Source of the DNA: Eledone cirrhosa
Taxonomy: Eukaryota
DNA length: 64,000 nt
Reading direction: 5' to 3'
NCBI GenBank assembly: GCA_964016885.1
Contig: OZ024759.1
Coordinates: 3,472,001-3,536,000 of the forward strand
Each line of letters starts with the position of its first letter. Position 1 is the first letter of the stretch. The position numbers and the translations under genes were made by a program. Below the pieces are notes generated by a model, which was given only the letters and a program-made list of their open reading frames with translations, had not been told where the DNA came from and made no database searches. This document shows positions 1 through 50,538 of the stretch, one piece after another.

Positions 1-424
1 TCACAATCTCCACACAAGCCAGGTTACTGACGACCCAAGAAATGCACAGAATTCATTGTTGAAAGAAATGGAGGCATTTTCACTGTTGAAGACCAAAATG
101 TACCATCTCCACCACCTCTGACATCAGATTCTATTACAACTATGGAATTTAGACCTGCAATGCCACCTTACAAAACCTCTACGTAGTCTTTCTAACTGCT
201 AGAAATAGCAGCGATATTATCCATTACAACTTCGTTTTTTTGTTTAAAATATCCAAAGTTTAGTTATGAAATCAACAGCAAGTCCTTTGCACAGACTTCG
301 GAATAAACTCGAAGACCGTCAAAATATCATTCTCCTTCTCTCTCTCTTTAAACAAAGAATAGCTGCTTTCAACCTTAACGGGATCTTCTGAAACTCATTA
401 TTTTAATCAATAGTTGCTCTACGG

Positions 425-478
<54 letters not shown>

Positions 479-571
479 GTAATTCCGTCGGAAAAGTGCA
501 GGAAAAAAGAGTGCTCTATGTAGGCAACAGAGCTTAATTATTATTATGTAATAAACAACATAAGGCAATTA

Positions 572-631
572 TTCCATTTACCAGTGGTTTCTTAAAAGCA
601 AAAGGTTTTGCTTTCAATCCTCAGAATGAAA
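572..631 (-). ncRNA. Type I hammerhead ribozyme (family 1)
   Basis: Reverse complement reads ttcatt-CTGAGGA-ttgaaagcaaaa cc ttttgcttttaa-GAAA-cc act gg-TA-aatggaa, giving stems I/II/III, the conserved core and a GUA cleavage triplet. Confidence 0.8.
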
Positions 632-776
632 AAATCCTGGTTTGTTTATTGAATTTGGATTTTAAAAAACAAAAATGCAAACTATATGAAAGTGAGGCTG
701 GAGAAGGGAGAAGGAAAGGAAAAATAAAATAAAACTACACATGCAAACACACACACAAAAACACAAAAGCATACAT

Positions 777-839
<63 letters not shown>

Positions 840-1089
840 CACATATATATAAAAAAAAACATTGACACTCCTATGATAAATCAACCGCCTTGAAATCCTT
901 CCCTGCTCTTTACTTCTGCTACGGTTTTTATTTTGCTGATTCTACGTTCTGTACTCTTGTATATTTACTTATTTTTTTCTCCCTTACCTCCCCTTATATT
1001 TTACCTTTTCTTATGCCCCCCCCCCCCATATATTCTGTTTGCCTTGCCCTTCACATACCTATGTGTATGTGTATGTATATTTGTGTGTA

Positions 1090-1158
<69 letters not shown>

Positions 1159-1235
1159 GTGTGTGTATGTGTATGTGTGTATATATATGTATATATTTGT
1201 GTGTGTGTATGTATATGTGGATAAACCAGGGTTTT

Positions 1236-1295
1236 TTTCATTCTGAAGATTGAAGGAAAAATTTTTTGCTTTTAAGAAACCACTGGTGAATGGAA
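1236..1295 (+). ncRNA. Degenerate hammerhead ribozyme (family 1), triplet mutated to GUG
   Basis: ttcatt-CTGAAGA-stem II-GAAA-ccactgg-TG-aatggaa; diverged copy of 2492-2551. Confidence 0.65.
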
Positions 1296-1670
1296 TAATT
1301 GCCTTATGTTGCTTTATTACTTTACTACTATATATACGTATATGTAAGGTTCATATGAATTATCTAAGACTGAGTCTTACACATACACACATGTATGTGT
1401 GTGTGTATGTGTATGCATGTGTATATATATGTATGTATATGTATGTATGTATATATATATATATATATATGTGTATATATATATATGTATATATATATGT
1501 GTGTATATGTATGCGTGTGTATGTATATATGTATGTGTCTGTGTTTGTGTTTGTATTTGGTTGTGCGTGTTTATGATATGTACGTATTTGTATGTGTATA
1601 ATTGTTTAGCTATGTATGTATATGTGTGTGTATGTATACGTATGTGTGTGTGTGTGCGTTTATATTTATG

Positions 1671-1741
<71 letters not shown>

Positions 1742-2151
1742 ATATAATTACATATACATATGTGTGTGTATATATTGTATACGTGTGCGTATTTGTGCAT
1801 GTATGTGCATGTATGTGTTTATGTATTTGTATATGTATATTTATGTGTGAGAGTGTGTGTATGTGTTTACGATTTCGTACGTATGTATACGTGCATTTGT
1901 GTGTATTACTTACCACGCGTGTCTGTCCAGTTAGCTGCCTTATGTAATGGTGTCAAAAAATTTTTTTAATATATATATATATTTTTTCTTATATTTATTT
2001 GCGTGTGTGAATATGTAGAGGAGTGCATTTATGTATGTGTATGTACGTATGTATATATGTATGATTGTGTGAATGTATGTATGTATATATGTGTGTGTGT
2101 ATGGCTATGTTTGTGTATGTGTATGCTTGTACACACATATATATATATGTA

Positions 2152-2204
<53 letters not shown>

Positions 2205-2313
2205 ATATGTGTGTGTGTATGTGTATGTATGCGTGTATGTATGTGTATATGTGTATGTATGTGCATGTGTATATTTGTGTATGTATATATATATATGTGT
2301 ATATGTATATATG

Positions 2314-2344
<31 letters not shown>

Positions 2345-2491
2345 ATGTATGCTTTTGTGTTTTTTTGTGTGTGTGTTTGCATGTGTAGTTTTATTTTATT
2401 TTTCCTTTCCTTCTTCCTTCTCCAGCCTCACTTTCATATAGATTGCATTTTTGTTTTTTAAAATCCAAATTCAATAAACAAACCAGGATTT

Positions 2492-2551
2492 TTTCATTCT
2501 GAGGATTGAAAGCAAAACCTTTTGCTTTTAAGAAACCACTGGTAAATGGAA
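2492..2551 (+). ncRNA. Type I hammerhead ribozyme (family 1)
   Basis: CTGAGGA at 2499-2505, a long stem II, GAAA at 2532-2535, stem III acc-act-ggt, GUA triplet ending at 2544, and stem I ttcatt/aatgga. Confidence 0.8.
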
Positions 2552-3422
2552 TAATTGCCTTATCTTGTTTATTACATAATAATATTTTACATGGTAGACA
2601 TTATTTGAATTTTGAAAATGTGAGACCAGAGAAATTGCTTCATGTGACACTGTAAGAAAACATTAAAAAATGAAATGTATATCTTCTTCTTTATCATTAA
2701 GTATGTCAGCAGCAGCAGCACCACACACACACACACATATATATATACAGAGAGAGAGAGAGAGAAGAGAGAGAGTAGTTAATAATAAATACAAAGACCA
2801 AAATCTAGAGAGGGCTCAATAAGATAAGAGTTTTATGTATATATATATATATACATATATATGTATCATCATCATCATCATCATCATTTTACGTCCACTT
2901 TTCCCTGCTTGCGAGGGTGGGACGGAAACTGATTCTGGTTTGATTTCTACAGCTGGATGCCCTTCCTACCACCAACCTTATTTACAGTGAGTGCTGGGTG
3001 CTTTTTTGCTGTGGCACCTCCACGACCACTTTGCAGTGGAATGATAGAGGCCCAAGTCCCTATCATCTCATTTCTACAGCTGAGTAAACTGGAGCAATGT
3101 GAAATAAAGTGTCTTGCTCAAGGAAACAACACATCACCCGGTTTGAGAATTGAACTCACAACCTTTCGATTGCAAGGCCAATGCTCTAACCACTAAGCCA
3201 TAGAGAGAGAGAGAAGTGAGAGAGTAGTTAATAATAAATAGAAACACCAAAATCTGGAGAGGGCTCAATAAGATAAGAGTTATATATATATATATGTATA
3301 TATATAAGTTGAAAAAAATGAAAACGAAATTTCATTTCTCACTCTTAGTATGGCACTTACTTAAATGTAAGTATGTATGTATACGTACATACATATATGT
3401 ATACGGACGTACAGTAGCATGC

Positions 3423-3455
<33 letters not shown>

Positions 3456-3761
3456 TACAGGTACACATACATATATGCACGCATCAGTTTAGCGGACGCT
3501 TATTATAACGCCGCTTTGTTCGTTTGTCAACAAACTGAACAGCCTGAATTTATGCCATACGGTGTTAAGGTAACCACGTCACCTTTTTGTTCAACACTGA
3601 CACAGGAACGATGTACTAGTTTCAAGCTTGTTAGCTATCATCAGCACCGTTTACCTATCTGCCAGATAGTTGAACGTTCGAAAGTATATTCTTTCCTTAT
3701 CAAAATTAACGGCTGAGCAGCCTAATTTGCATATTGAGTGAGTTAAATCGGTCAGGCATCA

Positions 3762-4400
3762 AATTTGTGTTCTTTTATTTTGTTTTTGATATGCTACCAA
3801 GGATTGGGGGTTAGAGTTGTGTTTGCATTCCTGTCCAGTTGTTATATGGTTTGGATGGCTATTCTAGTAGGCAGATATGAAGCAGGAGGTGCTATTGTTG
3901 CTGACATACTAGGGATGGTAAGTAGGTTAAGGTATCAAATTACCAGAGGGGTCAGTCATCACCCCACCCCCCGTTCATATATGTTAAAGAATTTGTTCGA
4001 ATAATCTACTTATTTTTTTGTTTATTTGAACTTTGTTTATTTGTTTGAACTACATAGCTATATATCCAGGCTGTGTATTATTAGAGAAGGTGATTCTTGT
4101 GTAACTATGTAAGGATGCATTAAATGTATAGATTTAGTCATTATGTTCAGCTCTAGGTGGAAGTTAGCATGGAATGTGTTAACTATCTAATCTAAGGAAA
4201 GTTTTAGATATTTTATGCATACAAGTATTAACTCTTTAGCATTTACATTACTCTGTAATGTATTTTCTCTGTAAAGTCTTTACCTCACATAATAATCTCA
4301 CATAATATCAAATCAACAAGATTTTGATATTATTTATTTTGAGAACAATACCTTAACATAAGTATGAGCAGCCAGTTACGGCTGGTTTGAACAGAAAAAG
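3762..4400. repeat. ~640-bp near-identical dispersed duplication, other copy at 10057-10696
   Basis: Both copies give the same spurious 79-aa ORF (3765 and 10060) with one residue different; the segment includes part of a TTAA MITE. Confidence 0.9.
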
Positions 4401-5327
4401 GTGAGAGAATTCTGGCCGGATATGGCCGGTTTAAATGCTAAAGGTTAAAGTGGTCAGAGCCTTTGTTAATTACTTCCTGTCTCCTATTAATAATGTGTTG
4501 AGCTTCCGTTGTACAGAGATCACAGCCACATGAAAAAGGATTCGCATAAATATGGAAATGCATTTGTGAGAATACGCCAAGAAAACGAGTACTGTACCTG
4601 GTTCTGTTTTAGCCTCCTTATGATTTAGCATAATTTCAGATAGCGCTGTGCTTCTTCTTCTGTCTATTCAGTTAAATGAGTGCTGATTGTACCATTTAAC
4701 ATACATACATATGTACATGGTGGCTGCCAACTCGTTTTCGAGTACGGCCACTACTTTATATCCATGTAGGAGAACCCCTACCGATGCGCTGAACAATAGT
4801 GACTTTTTAGTCCAGCCAGCGACTTGAAAATTCCTGTACAGAGAGATCTCCAGATACAAAGCAATGCCTGTGCCGTGAAGCTTTTATAGTGAGCAAAGGC
4901 ACTGCACAAAGCCAGTCCCACTCTCTTAACTAAGATGATATTTACCAAAAGGAAGAACAAGTCAACATCATTGGATACCATCAGGGTTGCAGGTGTAATA
5001 TTAGAGTTTTCCTTCTCCTAGAATTCTGCCTTGAGAAAGGCTAAGGGGTCATCTCTCCCGGTGATTTTGGATGGCCATTGACACTTAAAAGCTCCGTTGC
5101 CCTTTCACAGGTTTTGTTTTTAGTCCTGCAGGATGTCCAAAGTCACCCTCCTCACCAAGAAACCTTGGTGGGGTTACCATTTCAGTCGCTAACGACCCGA
5201 CCATGAGACAGGTTGTACTGGGATACATGTTACCAGTAGCACCAACTGGTGACCTGACATATGTACATATGTACATATATACATACATACATAACCACTT
5301 TAAACTAAACAATTTTGTACCCTAGAA

Positions 5328-5646
5328 CAGGGGTGTGCAACATATTCCATTGGCGGGCCACTTTTGAACATTGGAACAATTATTAGGGCTATTATTATTT
5401 ATTAAGCACTATTCCGAAGATTCACCACAACTTCTTTCCATAACATGGAACTGGGAAAGTATAACACACATAACCCTATCAGTGAAGCCCTTTAGTATAG
5501 GTCAACTAACAGAAAATTGTATTACGGTTATGAAAAAAATTGTAAATAGGCCTACAAGGTAAACATTTAAAATGGTCACCGCGGGCCACTTTGACTGGTC
5601 TGGCAGGGCGGATTGTGGCCCACGGGCCGCCTGCTACATGCCCCTG
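5328..5646. mobile_element. hAT (Charlie-type) MITE
   Basis: Termini CAGGGGTGTGCA...TACATGCCCCTG with a perfect 8-bp TSD CCCTAGAA (5320-5327 and 5647-5654). Confidence 0.85.
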
Positions 5647-5781
5647 CCCTAGAAGCAGGGGCAGTCTTATGTGGTTTGATGTAAAAAAAATTAAGGACTC
5701 ATTGATTCTCAACATTTAAGCAGTGTTGTTGTATGAAGGGATGGTTGTGTAAACAACGCTATCTGGTGGTAGGTTACTAAC

Positions 5782-5919
5782 CTGTCTGGCAGTTACTTCC
5801 CTTGTAACCAACTGCACATCCTCCACTTGAACATATCCCTGACACTATATTACATTTACTGTTGTCTGCACAGTGGCACATATACTTGCAGTTAGGACCA
5901 AATGAACCAGATGCACACA
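5782..5919 (-). CDS. Exon (138 nt), EGF-like: VCASGSFGPNCKYMCHCADNSKCNIVSGICSSGGCAVGYKGSNCQT
   Basis: Acceptor ttccattgcag and donor gttagt; close paralogue of the preceding exon. Confidence 0.9.
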
Positions 5920-8900
5920 CTGCAATGGAATAAAGCAACAACAACAGAAAACATGAGGATGAAGAAGAAAAAGAGACAATTATACAGACAGATGCACATG
6001 CATAGTGGAGGTGTGTGGCCTAGTGGTAAGGGTGTTGGACTTGCAATCATAATGTCATGGGTTCGATTCCTGGGCTGAGTTGTGCGTTGTATTCTTGAGC
6101 AAAACACTTCATTTCACGCTGCTCCAGTATACTCAGCTGAAAACGAGTATCAGCAATAGCTGGGGTTTTGACCCCACGATGGATTGGCGTCCTGTCCAGG
6201 GAGGAGTCTTGTACTCTCAGTCATTTCACACCATAAAAATGGGATAAGCACCTACTATTGTCTTGACACAATATATTATGTTACAAAAAAAGCTATACTA
6301 CACCACTTACCTGTCTGACAGTTGCTACCTTCATAACCAGCAGCACATCCTCCACTTGAACACACACCTGTCTGTTTGTTACACCTGCTGTTGTCAGCAC
6401 AGGGGCATGTGTTGCCACAGTTTGGTCCAAATTTCCCCTCTGGACATTCTACAATGAAAGATCATGAGAAAACCTCTGCTCTTTTATCTCACTAAACATT
6501 TGTAAAAAAAATGAGGTTCAACTGAGTAAGAATACAAAGGATTAATAGGATTAATCAACCCTTACAATACTAAGGACCTTTGTTAAGTTATGTTCCAAAT
6601 ACCATCTTAACCGTTTTGATACCAAACTGCCAGATGTGGACCTTGTTCTTACAATACTAACAACCTTTGTTAAGTTATGTTCCAAATACCATCTTAACCC
6701 TTTTGATACCAAACTGCCAGATGTGGACCTTGTTCTTACAATACTAACAACCTTTGTTAAGTTATGTTCCAAGCACCATCTGAGACCACTCTTGGCAGGT
6801 CTGTTGGATGTTGGCTTACCTGGGGCTAAACAACATCAACAATACCTACTACAATATGCAATACCACCACCACTACCACTATCACCAGCAGCAGCAGCAC
6901 CACCAACACCACCACCACACCAACAACAACAAAACCAGCATCCTCCTCCTCACCACCACCACAACTACCTCCACTCCACCACCACCATCACCACCTACAC
7001 TCCACTCCCACTATAACCACGACAGCCACCTACACTCCACCAACACCACCACCACCACCACCACCACCATCACCACCACCACCACCATCATCATCATCAC
7101 CATCACCACCACCACCACCACCACCAGTACCACCATCATCATCACCACCACCATCTGGGAGATCCAAAATACTGTTGTGGTCCCATTCCATTACTTCACC
7201 AATCTTGTAGACCCTAAATATTGTAATGGTCACTGTCCTTTCTCTTCCACCAACCTGAGAGACCCTAAATACTGTTGTGGTCCATGTCCCTTCTCTTCCA
7301 CCAATCTGGGAGTCCCTAAATACTGTCATGGTTCCTGTTCCTCCCTCCAGTAATCTTGGAGACCCTAAATACTGTTGTAGTACCTTCCCATTCCTTCCAC
7401 TAATTTTGGAGACCCTAAATATTGCAATGGTTACTGTCCCTTCCTTCCTTCAATCTAGGGGACCCTAAATACTGTTCTGGTCCCTGTTCCTTCTCTTCCA
7501 CCAATCAGTGAGTCCCTAAATACTGTCATGGTTCCTGTCCCTTACTTCTCTTCCACCAATCAGTGAGTCCCTTAATACTGCCGTAGTCCCTGTCTCTTCT
7601 CTTCCACCAATCAGTGAGTCCCTTAATACTGTTGTGGACCCTGTCTCTTCTCTTCCACCAATCAGTGAGTCTCTTAATACTGTTGTGGTCCCTGTCTCTT
7701 CTCTTCCACCAATCAGTGAGTCCCTAAATACTGTCGTGGTCCCTGTCTCTTCTCTTCCACCAATCAGTGAGTCTCTTAATACTGTTGTGGTCCCTGTCTC
7801 TTCTCTTCCACCAATCAGTGAGCCCCTAAATACTGCCGTAGTCCCTGTCTCTTCTCTTCCACCAATCAGTGAGTCCCTTAATACTGTCGTGGTCCCTGTC
7901 TCTTCTCTTCCACCAATCAGTGAGTCCCTTAATACTGTTGTGGTCCCTGTCTCTTCTCTTCCACCAATCAGTGAGTCCCTAAATACTATCATGGTCCCTG
8001 TCTCTTCTCTTCCACCAATCAGTGAGTCTCTTAATATTGTCGTGGTCCCTGTCTCTTCTCTTCCACCAATCAGTGAGTCCCTAAATACTGTTGTGGTCCC
8101 TGTCTCTTCTCTTCCACCAATCAGTGAGTCCCTAAATACTGTTGTGGTCCCTGTCTCTTCTCTTCCACCAATCAGTGAGTCCCTTAATACTGTCGTGGTC
8201 CATGTCTCTTCTCTTCCACCAATCAGTGAGTCCCTTAATACTGTTGTGGTCCCTGTCTCTTCTCTTCCACCAATCAGTGAGTCCCTAAATACTATCATGG
8301 TCCCTGTCTCTTCTCTTCCACCAATCAGTGAGTCCCTAAATACTGTCGTGGTCCCTGTCTCTTCTCTTCCACCAATCAGTGAGTCCCTAAATACTGTCGT
8401 GGTCCCTGTCTCTTCTCTTCCACCAATCAGTGAGTCCCTAAATACTGTCGTGGTCCCTGTCTCTTCCCTCTCTAAAGGGTAAACAGATAAAAACTTACTT
8501 GACTGGCAGCTGTGTCCCCTGTAACCAGGTGAGCACCTTCCATTGATGCAGATACCATTGTCAGAGTAACATTTGCCATTATTCAGACAGTGGCACTTCT
8601 TCACACAGTTGACACCAAACATGCCATGGGCACATCCTGAGAAAACAACTTCAATATGTAATTACTGTATTTCCTGACGCCGAAGACACTTCGTCCTCGA
8701 GGACACACCCTAATTCTGACAACCAAAAATTTTAAAAAAAATAATTGTTTCTACTTTTGGCACAAGGCCAGCAATTATCCCAATGTATTACTGGTACTTT
8801 ATTTTATCGACCCCGTAAGGATGAATGGCAAAGTTAACCTCGGCGGGATTTGAACTCAGACCATAAAGGGACGTAACTCTTTGCTGCAAAGCATGGCGTC

Positions 8901-11900
8901 AGACCGATACTGCCAATCCACCGCTCTTTGAATTTGAAGAAAAATAATTGTTTCTACTATTGGCACAAGGCCAGCAATCACCCAGTACATTACTGGTACT
9001 TTATTTTATCGACTCCGTAAAGATGAAAGGCAAAGTTAACCTTGGCAGGATTTGAACTCAGAATGGCAAGTGCTGTAACTCTATGCGTCAAAGCATGGCG
9101 TCCGACCCTCTACCGATACTGCCAATTCACCGCCCTTTGAAGAAAAATAATAAACAACTTTCGGCCTCCAGGATGCATGGTAGATTTTTGAGACTTATTT
9201 TAGTAAAAGTAGCGTCTTTGACGCCGGGAAATACGGTGAGTTTAATTAATTCAAATTTCAGAGTTGTTATCTTTCATCCTTTGAGTGTATCCCATTTACA
9301 ATAGTAACTCTATAACCCTGCATGTTGTAGAAAGAGCCTAAAATAGTTTGGCATCAAGAAGGGCATCCAGCAGCAAAATAATGCCTCAATACTATATATC
9401 ATCATCATCATTGGATGCGCAATGTCAATGTGCATGAATGAGCAAGCATAGACGAGTTGAGAAAGAAATTGTGTATAATAGGGATAAGCTGTAGTGTGTG
9501 GGAGAGAAGACTGCGTTGGTATAGACATATGATGTGCATGGAGGATGACTGCTGGGTAAAGAAGTGCCAAGAAATCCCAGGAGAAAGAAGATGCAGTAGA
9601 GGAAGACCACGAAAATCATGGACGAAGGTGGTGAGATCTGACCTCAGATTGCTGAAGCTCATGGAGGAGATGACGAAAGACTGTGATGAATGGAGAGATG
9701 CTGTGCTGTATAGGACCCATCCCACCCTTGCAAGCAGGGAAAAGCGGACGTAAAATGATGATGATGATCATCATCATGGTTATCATCATCATCATCATCA
9801 TCATTGTTTAACATCCATCTTCCACACTAGTCTGGATTAGATGGTTTTGTTCCACTTGAGGTGAGATTGGTCTGGAGACTGTGTCTTGCTTGTACAGAAC
9901 TGTCTTTGGTAGGTTTTTTACCCCTGGAGGCCCTTCCTAACACCAACCACATTTACAGTGTACATCTTCTGTTTATTACATAATTCTGTTATACGTATTT
10001 CGAAGATGTCAGAGTGGTTGCATAACTTTCTGACATGTTCTCTTCAGACAAGTTGAAATTTGTGTTCTTTTATTTTGTTTTTGATATGCTACCAAGGAGT
10101 GGGGGTTAGAGTTGTGTTTGCATTCCTGTCCAGTTGTTATATGGTTTGGATGGCTATTCTAGTAGGCAGATATGAAGCAGGAGGTGCTATTGTTGCTGAC
10201 ATACTAGGGATGGTAAGTAGGTTAAGGTATCAAATTACCAGAGGGGTAAGTCATCACCCCACCCCCCGTTCATATATGTTAAAGAATTTGTTCGAATAAT
10301 CTACTTATTTTTTTGTTTATTTGAACTTTGTTTATTTGTTTGAACTACATAGCTATATATCCAGGCTGTGTATTATTAGAGAAGGTGATTCTTGTGTAAC
10401 TATGTAAGGATGCATTAAATGTATAGATTTAGTCATTATGTTCAGCTCTAGGTGGAAGTTAGCATGGAACGTGTTAACTATCTAATCTAAGGAAAGTTTT
10501 AGATATTTTATGCATACAAGTATTAACTCTTTAGCATTTACATTACTCTGTAATGTATTTTCTCTGTAAAGTCTTTACCTCACATAATAATCTCACATAA
10601 TATCAAATCCACAAGATTTTGATATTATTTATTTTGAGAACAATACCTTAACAAAAGTATGAGCAGCCAGTTACGGCTGGTTTGAACAGAAAAAGCACCA
10701 CCTACACTCCACTCCCACTATAACCATGACAGCCACCTCCACTCCACTCCCACTATAACCACGACAGCCACCAACACTCCACTCCCACTATAACCATGAC
10801 AACCACCTACACTCCACCACCACCACTCACCTTTACAAGTGTTATTCACATCAATATATCCATCTTTACATCCAGTCACACATTTGCCAGTCAATTGATC
10901 ACATGTCTTTCTGCAGTTGTTGCACTCTTCTTTACAATTTCTTCCATAGAATCCAGGGAGACATTCTAGAAAGACAAACAATCTTAGTCATTATTTCAAT
11001 CTAGGGCAGTGGATTGGCAGAATCGGTGGAGCATCGAACACCATGCTTTGCGGCATAAAGTTATGGCCCTTTATGATCTGAGTTCCAATCCCGCCGAGGG
11101 TAACTTTGCTTTTCATCCTTACGGGGTCTTGTGCCTATATAAGGAACCATTATTTTAATCAAGGGCGGTGGATTGGCAGTATCGTTAGAGTGTCGAACAC
11201 CATGCTTTGCGGTATTGAGTTACGACCCTTTCCATTCTGAGTTCAAAACCCGCCAAAGTTAGCTTGGCCTTTCATCCTTACGGGGTCGATAAAATAAAGT
11301 ACCAGTCACACAATGGGGTCATTTAAATCGACTTTCCCCCTTCCCTTCAAATTACTGGCCTTGTGCCAACAGTAGAAACAATTATTTCAATCTACACTTT
11401 GACAATGCTGTTTATTTTAACCCTTTAGCATTTACATTACCCTGTATTTACTATTGTATTTTCATGGTAAAGGCTTTACCTCACATAATTATCTCATAAC
11501 ATTTACATTACTCTGTATTTACTATTGTATTTTCATGGTAAAGGCTTTACCTCACATAATATCTCACATAACATTTACATTACTCTGTATTTACTATTGT
11601 ACTTTCATGGTAAAGGCTTTACCTCACATAATTATCTCACATAACATTTACATTACCCTGTATTTACTATTGTATTTTCATGGTAAAGGCTTTACCTCAC
11701 ATAATATCTCACATAACATTTACATTACTCTGTATTTACTATTGTATTTTCATGGTAAAGGCTTTACCTCACATAATTATCTCAAATAACATTTACATTA
11801 CTCTGTATTTACTAATGTATTTTCATGGTAAAGGCTTTACCTCACATAATTATCTCACATAACATTTACCTTACTCTGTATTTACTATTGTATTTTCATG

Positions 11901-14900
11901 GTAAAGGCTTTACCTCACATAATGTTGAATCTACAAGATTTTAATATTATTTATTTTGAGAACAAAACCTTAACATCAGTATGAGTGACCAGTTGCAGCT
12001 GATTTGAACAGAGGTTAGAGATTTCTGGCCGGATATGGCCAGTTTAAATGCTAAAGGGTTAAACTGTTTACATTCCATTATAATTTCATGTAAGAACCTT
12101 TGTTAAGTTACATTCCAAACCACCTGAAACTGCCCCAGGTTCTATGCTACAAAATTGTTTATTCCAAAGCCTTTATATTATCTAAAAATCTTCCATCTAA
12201 TTTCATGTAAGAACCTTTGTTAAGTTACATTCCAAACCACCTGAAACTGCCCTTATTCCACTTTAAGTTTACGGTTCATTTCTTTTTCATTTAGAATTGT
12301 CTCCTGCAAGAACATAGATGAAAATGGATGAAAATGCACAAAAATTCAAACTGGTTATAATCAACAAGTAAAATCTTATTCATTTTTTTTTTTTTGGCAT
12401 GGCATTGGAAAAGCATCACACTGTCTAAAAAAGTCTGTCTTAAACCAGAAGGCTTGTTAGGCCAATGCTTATCTCGGTTTCATGGCATGAAGCAACTTGA
12501 AGTACAAGACACCTTGCTGTGAAGGCACATGTCTTAGTGGTTAGAGCATTGGGCTTGCAATCGAAAGGTTGTGAGTTCAATTCTTGAGCAAGACACTTTA
12601 TTTCACATTGCTCCAGTTTACTCAGCTGTAGAAATGAAATGATAGGACTGGGGTCCCTATCATTAAATTACTCTAGACACCTCCAACGAGATATACCTTG
12701 GAGGAGGCCAGCTAAACCTGCATATGTGTGAGCTGTAACAACAACAACCTCGCTGGACAGGACACCAGTCCATCACAGGGTTAAACCTCCAGCTATTACT
12801 GGTACTCATTTTCAGCTATATAATACAATATATTTTTCGTTAGGCTGGTGCTTATCTCTGTTTCATGGCGTGAAGCGACTGGGAGTACAAGATTCCCCCC
12901 TGGACAGGACACCAGTCCATCACAGGGTTAAACTTCCAGCTATTACTGGTACTCATTTTCAGCTGAGTATACTGGAGCAATGTGAAGTGAAGTGTTTTGC
13001 TCAAGAACACAACATGTAACCCAGCCCAGGAATTGAACCCATGACATTATGATTCTAAGTCCAACACCCTTACCACTAGGCAATGCACCAAACTGTGCAA
13101 CTCCTAAATATTTTTGTATCTCCTCGTGTTTGTGTTTTTGTAGTTTTTATGTCAAATGAATTCAGAGCATAATCGACATGTGATGATTTCAACTAAAACC
13201 TGTTTCCCTATAAATATGAAACACCCTAATATATATGTATATATGTTAAAGGTATATTATAAAGAGAAAGGACCTGCTGGCTGAGCTCTTGCTCTTTATA
13301 AAATAGCCATGCTCTACTACCGCGGGCTTTGTGTTGTGTTCTTGAGCAAGACACTTTATTTCACGTTGCTCCAGTTCACTCAGCTGTGGAAATAGGTTGC
13401 GATGTCACTGGTGCCAAGCTGTATCGGCCATTGCCTTTCCCTTGGACAATATCAGTGGCATAGAGAGGGGAGGCTGTTATGCATGGGCTACTGCTGGTCT
13501 TCCACAAAACAACCTTGCCCAGACTTGTGCCTTGGAGGGGAACTTTCTAGACTCAAATTCTATGGTCATTCGTGACCGAAGGATCTCTTTACCTTTTACC
13601 CTTACTAACCCATGTATCGAATACTCTGTTCAGTAATGGTCTAACTAGTTTTAAACTGGTTCTATCCTGATTTATGTTAAAGGTATAAAGGTATCTATAT
13701 ACTTATGAAAGACCTCCACTTCACACATGCTAAGGCTAGGTCCTGACAGCAGAATTATTGTGATTTTGTTGCCCTTAACAGGACTAGAACATTGCACATC
13801 AATAACTTTTGTCTTCTCTAGATTGGAAATCTTCTCACATATTCTGTGTTTTTTGTCTTTTGATACCAACACTATTATTGAGAATTTATTTTGTGCTGCA
13901 GAAAAACATGGTAAGAAAGTTAAAACAAAAAACAAATAGCAATGGTATTTGGTGGTGATGGTGGTGAGGAGGAGGGAGATTTGGGTGAAGTTTAGTCAAA
14001 AACTGATTGGCAAACATGGGCTTGGACCAGTGCAAGATTTAGGGCACATGAAGCCCTGTGCTAGTTATGTTATGAGGCCTCTTACTCGTAAAAAATTCAT
14101 CATAAAAAATTGTGCCAAATTTAGAATTAACCCTTTAGCATTTAAACCGGTTGTATTCGGCCAGAATTTTCTCAACTCTTTCTATTCAAACTGGCTGTAA
14201 CTGGACACTCATACTTATATTAAGGTATTGTTCTCAAAATAAATAACATCAAAATCTCATAGATTCGATATTATGTGAGATAATTATGAGGGCGGTGGAT
14301 TGGCAGTATCGGTAGAGGGTCGGACGCCATGCTTTGCTGCATAGAGTTACGGCCCTTTATGATTTGAGTTCAATCCTGCCGATGTTAACTTTGCATTTCA
14401 TCCTTATGGGGTTGATAAAATAAAGTACCAGTCACTCACTGGGGTTGATTTAATCGACGTTCCCCCTACCCCAAAATTGCTGGCCTTGTGCCTATATAAA
14501 AAACCATTATGTGAGATAATTATGAGGTAAAGCCTTTACTGTGACAATACAATAGTATATATAGAGTAATGTAAATGTTGTGTGAGATATTATGTGAGGT
14601 AAAGCCTTTACTGTGACAATACAATAGTATATATAGAGTAATGTAAATGTTATGTGAGGTATTATGTGAGGTAAAGCCTTTACTGTGACAATACAATAGT
14701 ATATATAGAGTAAAGTAAATGTTATGTGAGATATTATGTGAGGTAAAGCCTCTACTGTGACAATACAATAGTATATATAGAGTAATGTAAATGTTATGTG
14801 AGGTATTATGTGAGGTAAAGCCTTTACTGTGACAATACAATAGTATATATAGAGTAATGTAAATGTTATGTGAGATATTATGTGAGGTAAAGCCTTTACT

Positions 14901-17900
14901 GTGACAATACAATAGTATATATAGAGTAATGTAAATGTTATGTGAGATATTATGTGAGGTAAAGCCTCTACTGTGACAATACAATAGTATATATAGAGTA
15001 ATGTAAATGTTATGTGAGATATTATGTGAGGTAAAGCCTCTACTGTGACAATACAATAGTATATATAGAGTAATGTAAATGTTATGTGAGGTATTATGTG
15101 AGGTAAAGCCTTTACTGTGACAATACAATAGTATATATAGAGTAATGTAAATGTTATGTGAGATATTATGTGAGGTAAAGCCTTTACTGTGACAATACAA
15201 TAGTATATATAGAGTAATGTAAATGTTATGTGAGATATTATGTGAGGTAAAGCCTCTACTGTGACAATACAATAGTATATATAGAGTAATGTAAATGTTA
15301 TGTGAGGTATTATGTGAGGTAAAGCCTTTACTGTGACAATACAATAGTATATATAGAGTAATCTAAATGTTATGTGAGGTATTATGTGAGGTAAAGCCTT
15401 TACTGTGACAATACAATAGTATATATAGAGTAATCTAAATGTTATGTGAGGTATTATGTGAGGTAAAGCCTTTACTGTGACAATACAATAGTATATATAG
15501 AGTAATCTAAATGTTATGTGAGGTATTATGTGAGGTAAAGCCTCTACTGTGACAATACAATAGTATATATAGAGTAATGTAAATGTTATGTGAGATATTA
15601 TGTGAGGTAAAGCCTTTACTGTGAAAATACAATAGTATATATAGAGTAATGTAAATGTTATGTGAGATATTATGTGAGGTAAAGCCTTTACTGTGACAAT
15701 ACAATAGTATATATAGAGTAATGTAAATGTTATGTGAGGTATTATGTGAGGTAAAGCCTTTACTGTGACAATACAATAGTATATATAGAGTAATCTAAAT
15801 GTTATGTGAGGTATTATGTGAGGTAAAGCCTTTACTGTGAAAATACAATAGTATATATAGAGTGGTTTCTTTATTTGCCACTAGGGCACAAAAGGTAGGG
15901 ACAGATACAAGGGGGGAAGTTTACATATAATTAACGAGTACAAAAATATAACAATGAAATAACAACAACAAACGAAGTCCTCAATAGGGAGGGGGCATTA
16001 ACATGGGTCGCACACACCCCGGAAAAAATGTGCAACCCTTCTCCTCAGGAGCACAAAGAGTAGGTGCTTCCCTCGTCTCCTCTTTTTCCTGTTCTTTCAC
16101 CTACAGGCTGATATAGAGAGAAGACCCATTCACTCTGGCCATTCTCCCTACTTTCACCCACCTTTCATAAAACTTGCTGGGGTAGAGCACCTCTCTCTCC
16201 ATTCTGATCCTTCTTTTAAAATGGTATTTGAAAAAGAGGACCAGTTGTTGGCCGGAGAGAAAGGTGTCTGACCTCAGCCCTTTCAGCCTCGTCCACCATA
16301 CAACTTCTTTAGCCATGGCTATCACACAGAGAAAAACCGCCTCTCCTTCGTTTTTGAAAGGGGGAGGCGCTTTGATCGTGACAATGGACTCGGTGGTCAA
16401 CCGGATTGGTTCCACCCTCAACAGTAGTCGTTCCACATAGCCCCACAGGTCAGCAATGCCTGGGCAGTGTACGAATGCGTGCGCAACGGTTTCGTCATCA
16501 TGCACGCATCTCGGACAGATCTTATTCAAAGGATCTCTACCTAGGCTCCCATGCCTGTGGAGCTTGTCTCGAACGGGTAGAGCCCCTCGGTAGCACTGCC
16601 AAGCCAGGGACTTTTGGAAGTTGTCCATCGGTCCAGGGCCAAACGTCCTACCGAACAGACTGGCCAGTTCATCTTCCTCTATGCCTAGAGCTTCTCCGAG
16701 AGCATCGTCGCACCTGCTGCGTACCAACCCTCTATAGAATGTCGAGGTGGAGTCTCCACTGATTGCCGGGTCCGCTTTCCAGAGGGCCGTGAGCGCCTGG
16801 GCACATTCAATGTGCCAGTCGCCCACTTTTCTCGGTCTTTGCTTGACCCAGGATTGCAGCTCGGTGAGCGAGACGAGTCTGGGAAAGGCTCGCCTCACAA
16901 ACGGGGCCCACACCGGTTGACCGGTGAGGAATACCTGGAGGTGCCGTAGCCTTAATGCGTATTTACGCATCTGTAGCCACGGCATCCCCAGCCCTCCTTT
17001 CGAAGGGTGTTGACAGCAGATGGATCTCCTCACCAAAGGGGTCCGCTTGTTCCAAAGAAATTGGAACAGCGCGCACTCCATTTTGGCGAGTCTTTTCACT
17101 GGGCAAGGCACGACGGTCAAGCGGTAGTAGATGACGGATGCTATATAAGTATTCGCCACCTCCGCTCGACCTTTCAGGGATAGTTTGCACTGGGCCCACT
17201 TCTGGGTGAGTGCAAACAGCCTGGCCGTTACCTCGTTCCAGTTTTTCTCCACCTGGAGGTCTGGTCCGAACCAGACCCCAAGCAGCTTCACCGGGCCCTC
17301 CGTCCAGCGTCCGAGGACGTCGTTGGAGGGCATCGGTTTGCCTCTCCATGTTCCGAGTTGCAAACCGACGGACTTGTCCCGGTTCAGCTTGGCTCCTGTA
17401 AACCTTTCATATTCCTCCAGTAAGGTGCCGATCTCACCGATTTGCGAGGTTTTCGACACCATTACTGTCACGTCATCGGCGTAGGCCGACGCCGCTTTCT
17501 GCAATCCCGGTTCCAAAGGGATGCCCTGCAACCGCTCCAACTTCCGCAGTAGTGGCTCAAGAGCCAGCACATACAGTAGGGAGGAGAGAGGGTATCCCTG
17601 TTGGATGGATCGCATGATTTGGAATGGCTCCGAGAGGTGGCCGTTCACCTTGACCCTTGAGCAGACGTTGCTGCTGTGCATCGCAGCAATCCAACCCCTG
17701 AAAACGGGTCCGAAGCCTGCCGCCGCGAGCACCGCATCCAGGTAACGATGGTCAACCCTATCGAAAGCTTTAGATTGATCCAAGTTGATCAGGGCCCCAC
17801 CCCAAAGCCGGTTTCATTCCCTACCCTCTCTATGATGTATCGCATAAGGTGGAGATTGTCGTGAATGGACCTGGACGGGATTGTGCATGTCTGCGCTTCT

Positions 17901-20900
17901 CCCACCAGGTTTCCAACGACAAGCGCCAACCTCTTCGCTAACACCTTGGCCAAAATCTTTAACTCTGTATTTAGCAGAGTTATGGGCCTGAAGTTATTTA
18001 TGTCATCCCCCTTGTTCTCATCCTTCCTCACCAGCGTAACTACGCCCTTGGTCACAGAACTGGGAATTCTCCCGTTCTGCTGCCAGTTGCAGTAGACAGC
18101 TTCGAAGATATCGGAGAACAAGTCCGGCATCGCTACATATAGCTCGTATGGTAGACCATCGAGACCCGGGGATTTGCGTTTGCTGCATTGGCTCAGCGCC
18201 GCCCCTATCTCAGCAGCTGAAATCGTCCTTTCGCAGGACTTCGCCTCCGCGTCCGAGAGGCGCGGCAGACCGTCGAGGTATGGATTGAAATCCATAGTCT
18301 CACCCGGCGCGCCGCCCCTCTCGAACAGTCATGCAAAGTGCCACTGAAAGGCCGCACACATCTGCCCAGGTTCAAGGATCACACGCCCATCCTGGTCCTT
18401 CAAAGACCGAATCGTGGACTTGTTACCACTTTTTGCCTCTGTCACTCGGGCCCAGCTCACAGCTTTGGCTCCCTCATTACCCAGAGCACGTATTTTACTC
18501 CTGACAACGCAGCCTTCATGCTTCACCTCAAAGAACTGGTCTAAGGCCATTCTTGATGCCAGCACGCCGGCTACATTGCCACTCCTAATCGCCTCATCTA
18601 CTCTATCTACTAATTCCCTTTCCGTCTTGTTCCTATCCCTTGCTAATTCCTGACTAAAACCTATCGATTCTATTCTAATTGCTCTCTTAAGAGAGATTTA
18701 CCACCTGTTGTTGACAATTGCCCCTGTCAAACTCTGCTTAACTAACGTGCTAATCCGTTTACTGTAAGCTTTGCTTCTCGGTAAGGACAAGTTCAGCTTC
18801 CAGTAACCGGGTCCCTGTCTATGGGTTCTATCAAGGTTGGCTATGCAGGTCACTAACTTGTGATCCGAATAGTCAACCATGAACATTTTTGGACAGCTAA
18901 ATGTGTCCCTATCCTTCTCTCTAACTAGGACCCTATCTAGGTACGACCTAGATGTTCCACTGCGATTGGTCCACGTCCATAGTGGTACAGTCGGAAAATC
19001 TAGTCGATATCTATCGGCCAGGTCAAATCGGCCGATTAACCTTTTGAGGCTTTTACACCCCCCTCTATTGGCACATGCCCCTACATAGTCCCAACGTGCA
19101 TCCAGGATACCATTCCAGTCCCCCACTAAAAGCAAGGAGCGGGACGTTCCCAGAAAAGTTTCCAGACGTTGGAAGTATTCCGGCCGCGCTGCCCAAAAAG
19201 GGGCGTACACAGCTATTAGTCTAAGGGCTCCACTTTCACTACTGCCGACGTCTAAAACCACCAGTCGACCCTCCGGGTCCAGGTGCACCTTCTGTATGGC
19301 GAGGCCCAGGTGTTTTCGCAGCAGAACAACAACTCCACCCCCACCCCCCCCCACCCGGTTGACAGAGAGATGCGAAGATCTCAAAGTCGTCGAAGAGGGG
19401 CGCCAGTTGGTGCTCGCTGCTGATCCTGGACTCGCAAATAGCCATTACATCCATTCTATGCGACCTGAGATCGTTTAAAAGTTTGCCTTGTTTCCAAGAC
19501 AGTCCCAGGCCGCGTACATTCAGACACCCAACTCTTATATCAGCCATGTTGGTTAAAAGAGGAAGGACCTACCTGTTCGGCTCCTGAGGAGCAGGTTGCA
19601 CAATATCCATGGGCGTATTGGAGGGGTTGTTTGGTGGGGTGTTGTTCTGTGGTGGAGTGGGGGTGTTTGGTGAGGTGTGGGTGGGGAAACGTTTCAAGAG
19701 GACGCGGTTATAGGGTCGAGTACATGTTTTCCCCACGTCCTCAGGAAAGTTCTCTCTTAGTTTTGCATAGGTGTCCATTGGGAGTCTTATCATTTTTAAA
19801 TGCGGTTTGTTGGCCGCGCTTGCAAAGAATTGCCCTTCAGTTTCCACCGAAGGGTCTTTGTGTATTGTTTTTACTAGTTCTTTGTTATTTGTGTTAATGT
19901 ATGTATACTGTTTTATTTGTGTTGTGTTTGTTTGTTGTTCTTGTGTGTGCTTACGTTTTGTTGTATGTGTTATGTTTTGGGGTGGGGCGGATTTTGTTTG
20001 TTCTGTTTGTTTTGTTTTTGTTGGTGGTTGTGTGTTTGTTTCGTTTATGTTCGAGTGGTGCTTTCTTTTTTTCCTTTTTACAGGTTGGAAGGGTTCCTCT
20101 TCTTCGTCACTAGGTGCCGTTTCAGCTGGGTCCTCGTCCGTGTTGTCGGGTAGTGGTGTATTTTGGGGTTTTGTTGTATTTGTGTGTGTTTTGGGAGTTG
20201 TTTTGGGTGGGGCCGTGTCTTGTGTTATTTTTCCGTGTTGTTTTTGTTGTTGTTGTGGTGGTGGCGGTGGTGGTGTGTGGGGTGTAGGCAAAAGAGCCTT
20301 TTTTTTGTCAATTGAGGACAAGCAGCCCTTAGATGACCCCTGCTTGAACAGTAGTAACATATGGGCCTCCTACCCTCGGCTGAAATGTATATAAATGTTT
20401 CTCCATCGAGGGACACCCTCTGTGGTATTCTAGCTATTCGTTCTGATCTCATTTGGACCAGAACCTCCACGCTCAAACCGCCGAAAACGTCTGTGGTGAC
20501 TTCTCCTACTGAGAGGATTCCGTCCTCGTCTTCTAAAAATCCTGTTAGTACCCAGGAAATGCATGCATTTGGCCGGATTCCGGAGACCCTTATCTTCTGC
20601 GTTCTTTTCCCTAAATATGTGGGGAAAAATGTATGTAGCTTGGAAACAATTGGCGCCACAGAGTATTTCCTGGCCGTCAATTGATCCTTCATTAGGACCG
20701 TTATATTCCCATAGAGTGGCCCTTTTTGTATGAACGATATATCACTCCACACATTTTTTAGGACCAGCTCAATCTCTTTTTGGGATAATTGAGCTGGTTT
20801 CCTTGTTATGTTGGAAATTGTTCTGAAAGATATCGTTCTTAGCGTCGTGTCTCTTTTGATTTCTTGTGGGGAGGTGATTGTGAAGTCTCCTCCTTCTTTG

Positions 20901-23900
20901 AAAGTTACATACTGTTTCGCTTCCTTCATCTTTTCTCTCAGAGTTGTAATGTCCAGTTGCTTGCAGGTTTGTGTTTTCCGGACCGCCTGTGCAAAGGAGG
21001 CACCAGTAGTGGGTTCGCTTTGTTTGGTGTTATCGTTATTTTTTCCTTGGTTGGTGTTGTGACTATTGCTGTTATTGTCGTTGTTGTTTTTGTCTGCGTT
21101 TATGTGACTTTCTGGGTTTTCACCCATTTTTACAAATTTTTCTTTTAATTCCGTGTTCCATGTTTCTTTTGCAGAAGTGAGGAGGGAAGACTTAGAGCCT
21201 TGTGGTTCTAGCTTCTCTGTATCACCTTTCTTAGGGGGCGTGGCTTTCACGTTAGGATGAGATGTGAAAATTCCGTCCATTTCTATTAGTTTGCACACGT
21301 CAACACACGTCTCTCGTATACGAGATGTTATGTGAGATAAAGCCTTTACTGTGAAAATACAATAGTATATATAGAGTAATGTAAATGTTATGTGAGATAT
21401 TATGTGAGGTAAAGCCTTTACTGTGACAATACAATAGTATATATAGAGTAATGTAAATGTTACGTGAGATATTATGTGAGGTAAAGCCTTTACCACAAAA
21501 ATACAATAGTATATATAGAGTAATGTAAATGTTATGTGAGATATTATGTGAGGTAAAGCCTTTACTGTGAAAATACAATAGTATATATAGAGTAATGTAA
21601 ATGTTATGTGAGATATTATGTGAGGTAAAGCCTCTACTGTGAAAATACAATAGTATATAAAGAGTAATGTAAATGTTATGTGAGATATTATGTGAAGTAA
21701 AGCCTTTACTGTGACAATACAATAGTATATATAGAGTAATGTAAATGTTATGTGAGGTATCATGTGAGGAAAAGCCTCTACTGTGACAATACAATAGTAT
21801 ATATAGAGTCATGTAAATGTTATGTGAGATATTATGTGAGGTAATGCCTTTACCACAAAAATACAATAATATATATAGAGTAATGTAAATGTTGTATGAG
21901 GCATTATGTGAGGTAAAGCCTTTACTGTGAAAATACAATAGTATATATAGAGTCATGTAAATGTTATGTGAGATATTATGTGAGGTAAAGCCTTTACTAC
22001 AAAAATACAATAGTATATATAGAGTAATGTAAATGTTACGTGAGATATTACGTGAGGTAAAGCCTTTACTGTGAAAATACAATAGTATATATAGAGTCAT
22101 GTAAATGTTATATGAGGTATTATGTGAGGTAAAGCCTCTACTGTGAAAATACAATAGTATATATAGAGTCATGTAAATGTTATATGAGGTATTATGTGAG
22201 GTAAAGCCTCTACTGTGACAATACAATAGTATATATAGAATAATGTAAATGTTATGTGAGGTATTATTTGAGGTAAAGCCTTTACTGTGACAATACAATA
22301 GTATATATAGAGTAATGTAAATGTTATGTGAGATATTATGTGAGGTAAAGCCTTTACTGTGACAATACAATAGTATATATAGAGTAATGTAAATGTTATG
22401 TGAGATATTATGTGAGGTAAAGCCTTTACTGTGAAAATACAATAGTATATATAGAGTAATGTAAATGCTAAAGAGTTAAAACATAACTTAACAAATGTTC
22501 TTACATAAAGTTAGGATAGAAGGTTTTAAGATAGTTATAAACATTTTATCATAAACTAAGATGCGTGGCTCTGTGTTTAGAGTATTCGCCTCACAATCGT
22601 AAGGTCATGAGTTTGTTTACCAGCGGAGTGTTGTGTCCTTGAGCAAGACACTTTATTTCATATTGTTCCAGTTCACTCAGCTGGCAAAAATGAGTTGTAC
22701 CTGTAATTCAAAGGGTCAGCCTTGTCACACTCTGTGACATGCTGAATCTCCCCGAGAGCTATGTTAACCCTTTAGCATTTAAACTGGCCATATCCGGCCA
22801 GAATTCTCTCACCTCTTTCTGTTCAAACCAGCCATAACTGGCTGCTCATACTTATGTGAAGGTATTGTTCTCAAAATATATAATATCAAAATCTCATAGA
22901 TTTGATATTATGTGAGATAATTATGTAAGATAAAGCCTTTACCACAAAAATGTAATATTAGATATGGAGTAATGTAAATGCTAAAGGGCTAAGGGTATGC
23001 ATGTCTGTGGAATACTAAGCCACTTGCACGTTAATTTCATGAGCAGGCTGTTCCAGTAATAGTGTCAACTGGAACACTCATTGTTGTAACCGACAGTGCC
23101 AGTTCAAGTTCAAGGGGTAGAGTTGATTCAGACAGTTTGGTATCCAAACAGTTAAACAATTAGGAACATGTGTGTTTCATGCCATTTATAAATAAATGTC
23201 TTTAGGTGACATTCTAGAACAGAAGTTCTCAAACTTTTTGGGGCCATCGCCCCCCACAGGGCCTTGTAATACCCTCTAAAACGCCACACCTATTTCCAGA
23301 GAGACCTACCTACAAGCAAATTGTAAATAATATAAAAAAAAGGAACGATGGACTTTCGTCAAATCGGACCGAGGAAACAATGTTTCCGTTGGTCTTTCCA
23401 ATTGCTAATACTATCTATCGGTCGCAACTCCAGGTAGAAGGAGCAACGTGAAATAAAGTAAATAATATATAATACATAAAATGGTTGATATATAATAAAT
23501 AATTCTTTCTACTTTTGGCACAAGGCCAGCAATTACTCCAGTATATTACTGGTACTGTATTTTATCGACCAAGTAAAGGTGAAAGCAAAATTAACCTAGG
23601 AGGGATTTAAAGTCAGATCATAAGGGGCCGTAACTCTATGCTGCAAAGCATGGTGTCCTACCTTCTATAATATATCGACAGTCGATCAACTTCCATCAAA
23701 TTGGACCACGGAATCAATGCTTCCATTGGTCTTTCCAATTGCTTGGCAGTTCTTTACCCAGCTGTCATCCACCATGCGCATCACATGTCCATACCAACAC
23801 AGTCTTCTCTCCCACACACTACAACTTATCCCTCTTATACACAGTTTCTCTCTCAACTCGTCTATACTTTGTCGTTCACATACATTGACATCACACATGC

Positions 23901-28815: not shown

Positions 28816-28984
28816 TATATATATATATATATGTGTGGAAAAAATGAAACAAAATTTCATTTCTCACTCTTAGTGCGGCTGTTACTTAAATATAAAGTAT
28901 GTATACATACATACATATATGTATACAGACGTACAGTAGTATATATACATGCACACATATATATATGTACGTATGGCACTCAAT

Positions 28985-33221: not shown

Positions 33222-33296
33222 TAAAACAGACACACAACTTCTGATCATCCACTACAAACGATGTCTCTAGCACACGACGATTCATCTACGGCAGAA

Positions 33297-49309: not shown

Positions 49310-49374
49310 TATTTTATCTGATGAAAGAGCACCAAGATTGACTTGGTCGCCCTTGAAATATATATAATAAAATA
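49310..49374 (+). ncRNA. Type I minimal hammerhead ribozyme (family 4)
   Basis: tattttat-CTGATGA-aagagcaccaag attga cttggtcgccctt-GAAA-tatata-TA-ataaaata, with an 8-bp perfect stem I, palindromic stem III and AUA triplet. Confidence 0.8.
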
Positions 49375-50473: not shown

Positions 50474-50538
50474 TATTTTGTCTGATGAAAGCATACCATA
50501 ATTTAACATGGTATCCTTGAAATATGTATAATGAAATA
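50474..50538 (+). ncRNA. Type I minimal hammerhead ribozyme (family 4, second copy)
   Basis: tattttgt-CTGATGA-aagcataccat aatttaac atggtatcctt-GAAA-tatgta-TA-atgaaata; the stem II sequence differs from the first copy but still pairs. Confidence 0.75.

Follow-up and report, generated by a model that had tools for sequence, protein, structure and literature searches.

A probable Penelope-type derivative with inverted, hammerhead-bearing arms and a TA/TG-rich filler in the genome of Eledone cirrhosa

A 64,000-nt stretch of the genome of Eledone cirrhosa (GenBank assembly GCA_964016885.1, contig OZ024759.1, positions 3,472,001 to 3,536,000), referred to here as the window, carries close to its left end, at 539-2584, a foldback element in which three hammerhead ribozyme motifs are combined with long inverted arms and DNA rich in TA/TG microsatellite. 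The left arm (539-850, minus strand) is an inverted, 5'-truncated copy of an end repeat that resembles the pseudo-long terminal repeats (pLTRs) of Penelope-like retrotransposons, and its inner end includes a TA/TG tract of 80-120 bp. It is followed on the plus strand by a pyrimidine-rich non-repeat stretch (852-1050), which has no other match in the window and around the start of which, at about 860-900, the strand skew flips; by a TA/TG microsatellite tract (1055-1220) with the polarity of the main filler; by a further copy of the hammerhead stretch, older and decayed (1223-1320); by the TA/TG-rich filler itself (1321-2351); and by a young pLTR-like end repeat of a many-copy family (2270-2584), whose 3' end lies 40 nt beyond the predicted cut. 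The right flank (2585-2715) is a piece of another repeated sequence. We consider the element likely to be the usual kind of remnant that a Penelope-like retrotransposon leaves.

The motif scan located type I hammerhead cores with C3 at 1243 and 2499 on the plus strand and at 624 on the minus strand, and with position 17 at 1288, 2544 and 579, respectively. The core consensus C3 U4 G5 A6 N7 G8 A9, G12 A13 A14 A15 and U16 is present in all three copies, whereas H17 (A, C or U) is found at 2544 and 579 and is replaced by G at 1288, in the middle copy. The outer motifs (2492-2551, plus strand, and 572-631, minus strand) are identical to each other throughout; each has a stem I of 7 bp, a stem II of 11 bp with the base pair U10.1-A11.1, and a stem III of 3 bp with a self-complementary 9-mer, and cleavage is predicted after the triplet GUA, at A2544 and at 579. 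When both strands were scanned for well-paired motifs (stems I and II of at least 7 bp each, stem III of at least 3 bp), three were found in the 64-kb window and none in 200 dinucleotide shuffles of 64 kb. The three hammerheads claimed by an earlier, sequence-only reading are thus real as motifs, but the middle one carries G17 and a broken stem II pair, and the locus contains two intact-looking hammerheads on opposite strands and one decayed, dead copy. It should be added that the check with hammerhead models proposed by that reading succeeded only as regards the cores, recovered by motif scan; no Rfam hammerhead family matched any copy, be it at E<=1 on 1-6000, at E<=10 on 2440-2600 or at the gathering score across the window. 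Rfam matches to miRNAs were under the gathering threshold and were rejected as microsatellite artefacts.

On pieces of 69 nt the hammerhead fold of the outer motifs reached -11.9 kcal/mol against a minimum free energy (MFE) of -12.4 kcal/mol, while on 91-nt pieces the MFE structure was not the hammerhead and the z-scores were merely -1.1 and -1.3. The stem III 9-mer is unstable as a hairpin (+0.4 kcal/mol) but stable as a self-duplex (-8.2 kcal/mol), which is also the case for the dimeric Penelope hammerheads (PMC4209133). A single hammerhead of this type is predicted to be weak; in the source element it would act as a dimer joined by the palindromic stem III, and at the present locus it is predicted to be idle.

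The middle copy resembles the outer ones over 98 bp only, at 90% identity (BLAST), and the direct pair of cores has no common sequence upstream of the motif. Its cleavage triplet is GUG, its stems I, II and III count 7, 7 and 3 bp, and its hammerhead fold (-4.1 kcal/mol) stands against an MFE of -8.4 kcal/mol; it is predicted to be uncleavable. Judged by its sequence, it would be an older copy, or a member of another subfamily, that has decayed. Neither was the window found to contain a tandem repetition of the 1256-nt unit, with one intact motif per strand, nor does the middle copy give a partial tandem, in which the upstream pLTR would be identical to the downstream one.

The inverted copy of the right end, hammerhead included, that had been reported at the left end is borne out: the arms (539 to about 850, and about 2270 to 2584, 315 bp) are 97.5% identical over 236 bp by BLAST, and across 2330-2584 they differ by four substitutions and one 2-nt gap. 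At all 11 sites where run X1 (see below) has another allele at 15-75%, the arms are identical; they differ at one family-polymorphic site (2415) and at two private ones, and the family base at 2564 is present in the left arm but not in the right. The punctuation of the adjoining 80-120 bp tract is common to both arms as well, with a score of 208 against 68-136 in five control tracts. Furthermore, all three copies end 32-40 nt beyond the cut site, and the skew of T over A and of TG over CA is uniform in 901-2500 and reversed in 701-870. A relationship of 852-1060 to the end repeat was considered and discarded, the alignment being of low complexity only (score 41).

The DNA between the hammerheads had been described as almost pure microsatellite, which proved to be an overstatement. 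Runs of at least five pyrimidine-purine steps cover 62% of the 1256-nt unit and 74% of 1321-2351, where non-repeat islands lie near 1330-1385 and 1860-2040; to these come the non-repeat stretch and the second tract upstream of the middle copy. A polypyrimidine tract ending in CAG (2399-2425, plus strand), which the hammerhead core follows at a distance of 74 nt, may serve as a splice acceptor by analogy with the intron in the 5' untranslated region of Penelope elements, as portrayed in parts of PMC4209133 and PMC8557442, and the filler has one donor-like site, at 1344, which is not beyond chance. No open reading frame (ORF), including reverse transcriptase or GIY-YIG, was found in the element. 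As a separate lead, which may point to the autonomous partner, a short candidate frame beginning with the basal pair of stem II (2506-2595, plus strand) is open over all 30 codons read; in the middle copy it is open over 40. With a minor allele that the family has at 2506, the frame would gain an ATG, as at the start of the PAc ORF.

Of twelve public sequencing runs considered, nine contain part of 2385-2715; the runs belong to five studies and six coded organisms, and none is on record as RNA, which carries no implication for expression. Evidence on the family comes from four of the twelve (X1, X4, X7 and X10), aligned to 2385-2715 at 80% likeness, which provided 1,695 contig pieces in X1, 28 in X4, 3 in X7 and 6,384 restriction site-associated DNA (RAD) reads in X10. 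Depth in X10 was 83-4,423 on 2385-2588 and 0-1 on 2589-2715, and the summed depth in X1, which is not to be equated with copy number, ranged from 26,580 to 813,768 across the repeat, against 645-669 in the flank. Because depth on the repeat far exceeds that on the flank in both runs, the repeat is not single-copy, a state that would have spoken against the sequence-only reading. In X1 the depth is highest at 2541-2552 and declines toward the 5' end. The repeat hence belongs to a dispersed, many-copy family with 5' truncation, common to at least three organisms among the aligned runs, and we infer that its copies number in the thousands.

Variation within the family bears on the ribozyme. Twelve variants are listed for the motif 2492-2551; nine are compatible with the fold and three disrupt it, two of them at 2506 and the third at 2516; none of those listed falls in the core or in stem III, and three further variants stand outside this list. 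Among the X1 variants at 5% or more in the motif, five of six are fold-preserving (P 0.006-0.034, depending on transition bias), the tolerated ones being N7 (41%), two loop positions, the replacement of a G-U by a G-C pair in stem II (24%) and that of a U-G by a U-A pair in stem I (33%). All are one-sided, linkage between the two sides of a stem is not visible, and they represent few events inherited by many copies. Opposite-strand joints are present at 2482/2489 (one X1 contig, eight X10 reads), 2455/2465 (five reads) and 2530/2559 (four reads), and show inverted junctions in other copies of the family. A 25-nt family pattern had no matches in metagenome, viral or prokaryote genome contigs. 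A looser pattern of core plus stem III hit 26 + 1 loci in metagenome and viral contigs, which was put down to chance: none of the 27 forms stems (no stem I of even 2 bp), and none matches 2385-2584.

A Penelope-like origin of the element appears very probable to us. The palindromic, short helix III, the long helix II, the inverted end copy, the many-copy family and the fold-preserving variants all agree with this part of the earlier reading. As to how the element arose, we give roughly even chances to a single composite insertion, carried out in trans by the protein of a Penelope-like retrotransposon. In such an event the young, hammerhead-bearing end repeat (2270-2584) would have been copied along with roughly 1.4 kb of donor DNA from upstream of it, which already contained the microsatellite and the old, decayed motif copy, and an inverted, 5'-truncated second copy (539-850) would cap the direct part (852-2584). 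By analogy with PAc, as far as the available part of PMC11167929 describes it, the protein would nick AT-rich DNA and reverse transcription would begin on uncut RNA, roughly 30-40 nt downstream of the hammerhead; such a start would explain why the copies end beyond the cut site. The common alleles of the arms, the shared punctuation of the tract and the uniform skew with its reversal in the left arm fit one event. The anatomy and the family data are observations; mobilisation, like dimer action and the intron, is a step that we infer.

Several observations weigh against this account. No target-site duplication of at least 5 nt fits both arm ends, a test blurred by their AT-rich, palindromic sequence. 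The left-arm allele at 2415 occurs at 12% in X1, hinting at two templates. The typical Penelope pair G10.1-C11.1 is replaced by U-A, and variants at 2506 break even this pair (C at 7.8% in X1; C at 9.4% and A at 8.6% in X10). No X1 contig bridges 2584/2585, and a single flank contig supplies all the depth on 2589-2600, so that the locus itself is not confirmed in the reads. In contigs of X1 and X4 the right flank has an upstream neighbour that differs from the left flank and is absent from the window, and therefore no clean empty site can be reconstructed. Moreover, no family copy was seen beside a reverse transcriptase ORF, a result that does not draw on any whole-genome search. In its structure the element agrees with a Penelope-like end-repeat insertion; with no ORF link seen in the material covered, the upstream pLTR not being identical to the downstream one and G10.1-C11.1 missing, we file it as a probable Penelope-type derivative. 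Of the non-autonomous family with microsatellite cargo that had been proposed, what stands is that there is no ORF here and that the 80-120 bp tract was duplicated with the arm; the copies may instead be truncated ends of an autonomous element.

A dedicated non-autonomous Penelope-like family, with a fixed, microsatellite-filled 1.7-kb body (852-2584), possibly including a retained intron (1344-2425), and a dead internal hammerhead, would spread TA/TG tracts wherever it inserts, and we regard it as unlikely. It would account for the TG-rich sequence found upstream of the repeat in nine X1 contigs and in RAD reads, for the (TA)n behind 2579 in 33 X1 contigs and for the recurrence of the upstream and downstream context of the middle copy in X4 contigs, a slightly different version of its tail being present in X1 and X4. 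One donor-like and one acceptor-like site flank the filler, an unrelated direct motif pair in the window (49318/50482) is set 1164 nt apart around AT/TG-rich filler, and non-autonomous Penelope-like elements are known (PMC8557442, in the part available). The copy-number data, however, cover 2385-2715 and not the non-repeat islands of the body; the X4 matches may represent the orthologous locus; target preference explains (TA)n behind the 3' end equally well; and a donor-like hexamer is expected by chance, by our estimate, in 1.2 kb of T/G-rich DNA. Still further reaching, and rather improbable, would be a protein-free Penelope-like master element of this lineage whose 1.7-kb body, made of a retained, microsatellite-filled intron and a dead hammerhead, would have been copied thousands of times, making it a main source of the TA/TG tracts in these genomes, and whose inverted arm would silence its own ribozyme within host introns and provide long double-stranded RNA for editing.

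The family could also have inserted independently, two or three times and each time 5'-truncated, into one AT-rich TA-repeat region, which would make the foldback a by-product and the microsatellite the target; this we regard as unlikely. Such a history would suit the missing target duplication, the flanks that do not join into the known neighbour, the greater age of the middle copy with microsatellite on either side, the polymorphic site at which the arms differ and the documented bias for (TA)n and AT-rich targets. Against it speak the agreement of the arms at all 11 sites with common alleles, the tract punctuation that they share, the head-to-head arrangement, which is the usual geometry of a single Penelope event, and the confinement of the family to this 2-kb stretch within the 64-kb window.

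A retrozyme, in which the direct hammerheads free a 1256-nt RNA that circularises and then reinserts, is hardly credible for this allele, even if two direct type I motifs do stand at this distance around non-coding DNA and animal retrozymes are proposed as derivatives of Penelope pLTRs in the part of 10.64898/2026.07.22.740005 that was available. The cut positions 1288 and 2544 and their spacing had been given correctly, but 1288 is G, outside the H17 consensus (PMC3088659, as partly consulted). Copies that are 90% identical over 98 bp, with no common upstream sequence, are unlike the products of a single circle, and no tandem array exists here; known units measure about 150-450 nt (PMC7229834) or at most 972 bp (10.64898/2026.07.22.740005) in the portions of these sources at hand, and two or more consecutive complete hammerheads were not found within the window. 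Given G17, the differing ages, the lack of common upstream sequence and of a tandem, the 1256-nt unit is predicted to be neither excised nor circularised, and the circular RNA of about 1.25 kb foreseen by the sequence-only reading is not expected. Even if dimerised with the right copy, under the double-hammerhead model found in part of PMC4209133, only 2544 would be cleavable, and therefore no 1256-nt RNA would be released. Finally, a DNA foldback element or miniature inverted-repeat transposable element (MITE) with long terminal inverted repeats, or a mirror artefact of assembly, would account for 315-bp inverted arms at either end and for junctions unconfirmed in the aligned runs, but it is highly improbable, as the arms have four substitutions and a gap with the family base at 2564 in the left arm only, a pattern not to be expected of a mirrored read, and as the 3'-heavy depth and the conserved ribozyme suit a retroelement and a target duplication is missing.

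To the right of the element, on the minus strand, lie EGF-like exons of 138 nt (8499-8636, 6311-6448 and 5782-5919), each bordered by AG and GT. Because the last one found, 5782-5919, ends in a splice donor with its frame open and without a stop, the element is probably intronic to this EGF gene, unless a terminal exon of another type lies in 2600-5780; no further EGF exon was found below 5782 in the window. The arm-arm duplex has a computed energy of -400 kcal/mol, and all 60 nt of the minus-strand motif are paired in the fold. The earlier suggestion that the minus-strand ribozyme could cut the EGF pre-mRNA holds as regards the probable intronic position, whereas cleavage is predicted to be unlikely, because the complementary arm would be transcribed first and would pair with the whole motif and because the window contains no second minus-strand copy of the family for dimer formation; a long hairpin would be the likelier effect. 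The gene itself extends over 5782-25207 (minus strand), with a fourth EGF-like exon at 25076-25207 and a weak galactose-binding (F5/F8-like) match at 24106-24459 (minus strand), under the Pfam cut-off.

TA/TG tracts and pieces of retroelements are abundant elsewhere in the window. A second direct pair of type I hammerhead-like motifs, 49289-49380 and 50449-50544 (plus strand), is 78% identical over 97 bp; each motif follows a pyrimidine tract, its stem III is palindromic and AU-rich, and its stem II opens with two A-U pairs. With AT/TG-rich filler, the pair repeats the spacing pattern of the element, but no inverted arm was found for it. A further hammerhead-like motif at 9990-10051 (minus strand), with G10.1-C11.1 and a 4-bp stem I, lies in an intron of the EGF gene on the same strand as the gene, and one copy of a direct duplicate (3761-4300 and 10056-10595; 540 bp, 99.4% identity) ends beside it, at 10047. 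A broken C-terminal fragment of a Penelope-like ORF (27611-28816, minus strand) has 43% identity over 119 amino acids to P0001 and no Pfam match; its parts we take to be reverse transcriptase and GIY-YIG endonuclease. It is flanked by an inverted repeat of 329 bp (94.5%) without a hammerhead core, and this second case of inverted repeats around a Penelope-like relic speaks for the Penelope-type account of the foldback. Both this inverted repeat and the 49318/50482 motifs were rejected as partners of the end-repeat family, having no BLAST match to it. The long frames at 16101-21808 (minus strand), 29003-31782 and 33245-35983 (both plus strand) presumably represent broken long interspersed nuclear elements (LINEs), with endonuclease and reverse transcriptase, and LTR-retrotransposon pol. 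A minisatellite of 8.3 kb (51781-60080), made of alternating purine-pyrimidine units, has no hammerhead core within 400 bp.

The end repeat represents a hammerhead family of many copies that appears not to have been described before and whose stem II has an unusual basal pair, U-A. No octopus or cephalopod hammerhead family was found in the literature covered, from which Repbase, Dfam and subscription journals were excluded, and the supplements of 10.64898/2026.07.22.740005, PMC8557442 and PMC4209133 could list it. With the variants that the family provides, one may ask whether cutting by Penelope hammerheads is under selection, and at this locus the inverted arm would mask the ribozyme within the host transcript. 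A microsatellite body throughout the family, which we hold to be quite unlikely, would, if true, tie the mobilisation of Penelope elements to the microsatellite load of these genomes; a link between retroelements and microsatellite spread has long been known (PMC2678813, in part). Otherwise the element is an ordinary remnant of Penelope type.

The comparisons that follow rest on the available parts of the cited sources. The closest likeness is to Penelope elements of Adineta vaga (PMC3846280), where two direct pLTRs and one inverted pLTR surround unrelated, also non-coding, DNA moved in trans, a pLTR-bounded geometry generalised for Penelope-like elements in PMC8557442 (PMC8969392 gives a general pLTR description). 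Inverted end copy, direct end repeat, an unrelated spacer of 0.9-1.5 kb, captured non-coding DNA and a target duplication that is at times absent are features of both. At the Eledone locus, by contrast, an old relic of 98 bp stands upstream in place of a twin pLTR, TA/TG microsatellite forms most of the cargo, and the analysed material revealed no partner with an ORF.

The motif also shares with metazoan Penelope hammerheads (PMC4209133; PAc, PMC11167929) the type I core, the long helix II, the short palindromic helix III, the location close to the 3' end, the variable families, the genomic ends downstream of the ribozyme and nearby pairs on opposite strands. It differs in U10.1-A11.1 in place of the conserved G10.1-C11.1, with G-U/G-C two pairs farther out, in having no clear extra nucleotide after A9 as in the min-HHR consensus, and in its helix II of 11 bp and helix I of 7 bp, which exceed the consensus. 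Dimeric Penelope hammerheads cleave poorly in vitro (PMC4209133); in the anole PAc the endonuclease favours AT-rich DNA, the start of reverse transcription lies downstream of the hammerhead, and insertion in vitro can proceed without cleavage (PMC11167929).

Animal non-LTR retrozymes (PMC7229834; 10.64898/2026.07.22.740005) are similar in being non-coding, in their type I hammerhead and in a probable origin from Penelope pLTRs; the Eledone element departs from them in the absence of a tandem, the 1256-nt spacing, one intact site per strand and the inverted cap. The genome of Octopus vulgaris contains 190 families of Penelope-like elements, which together account for 6.83% of it, and the part of PMC13282606 at hand does not mention ribozymes. 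With the non-autonomous Chlamys elements such as MRC1, and with the (TA)n-biased Naiad and Neptune (PMC8557442), the element has in common a Penelope-like nature without ORF and an association with microsatellite. Naiad and most Chlamys are without canonical hammerheads according to that account, and in Chlamys, Naiad and Neptune the microsatellite is the target, whereas at the Eledone locus it was in part copied with the arm.

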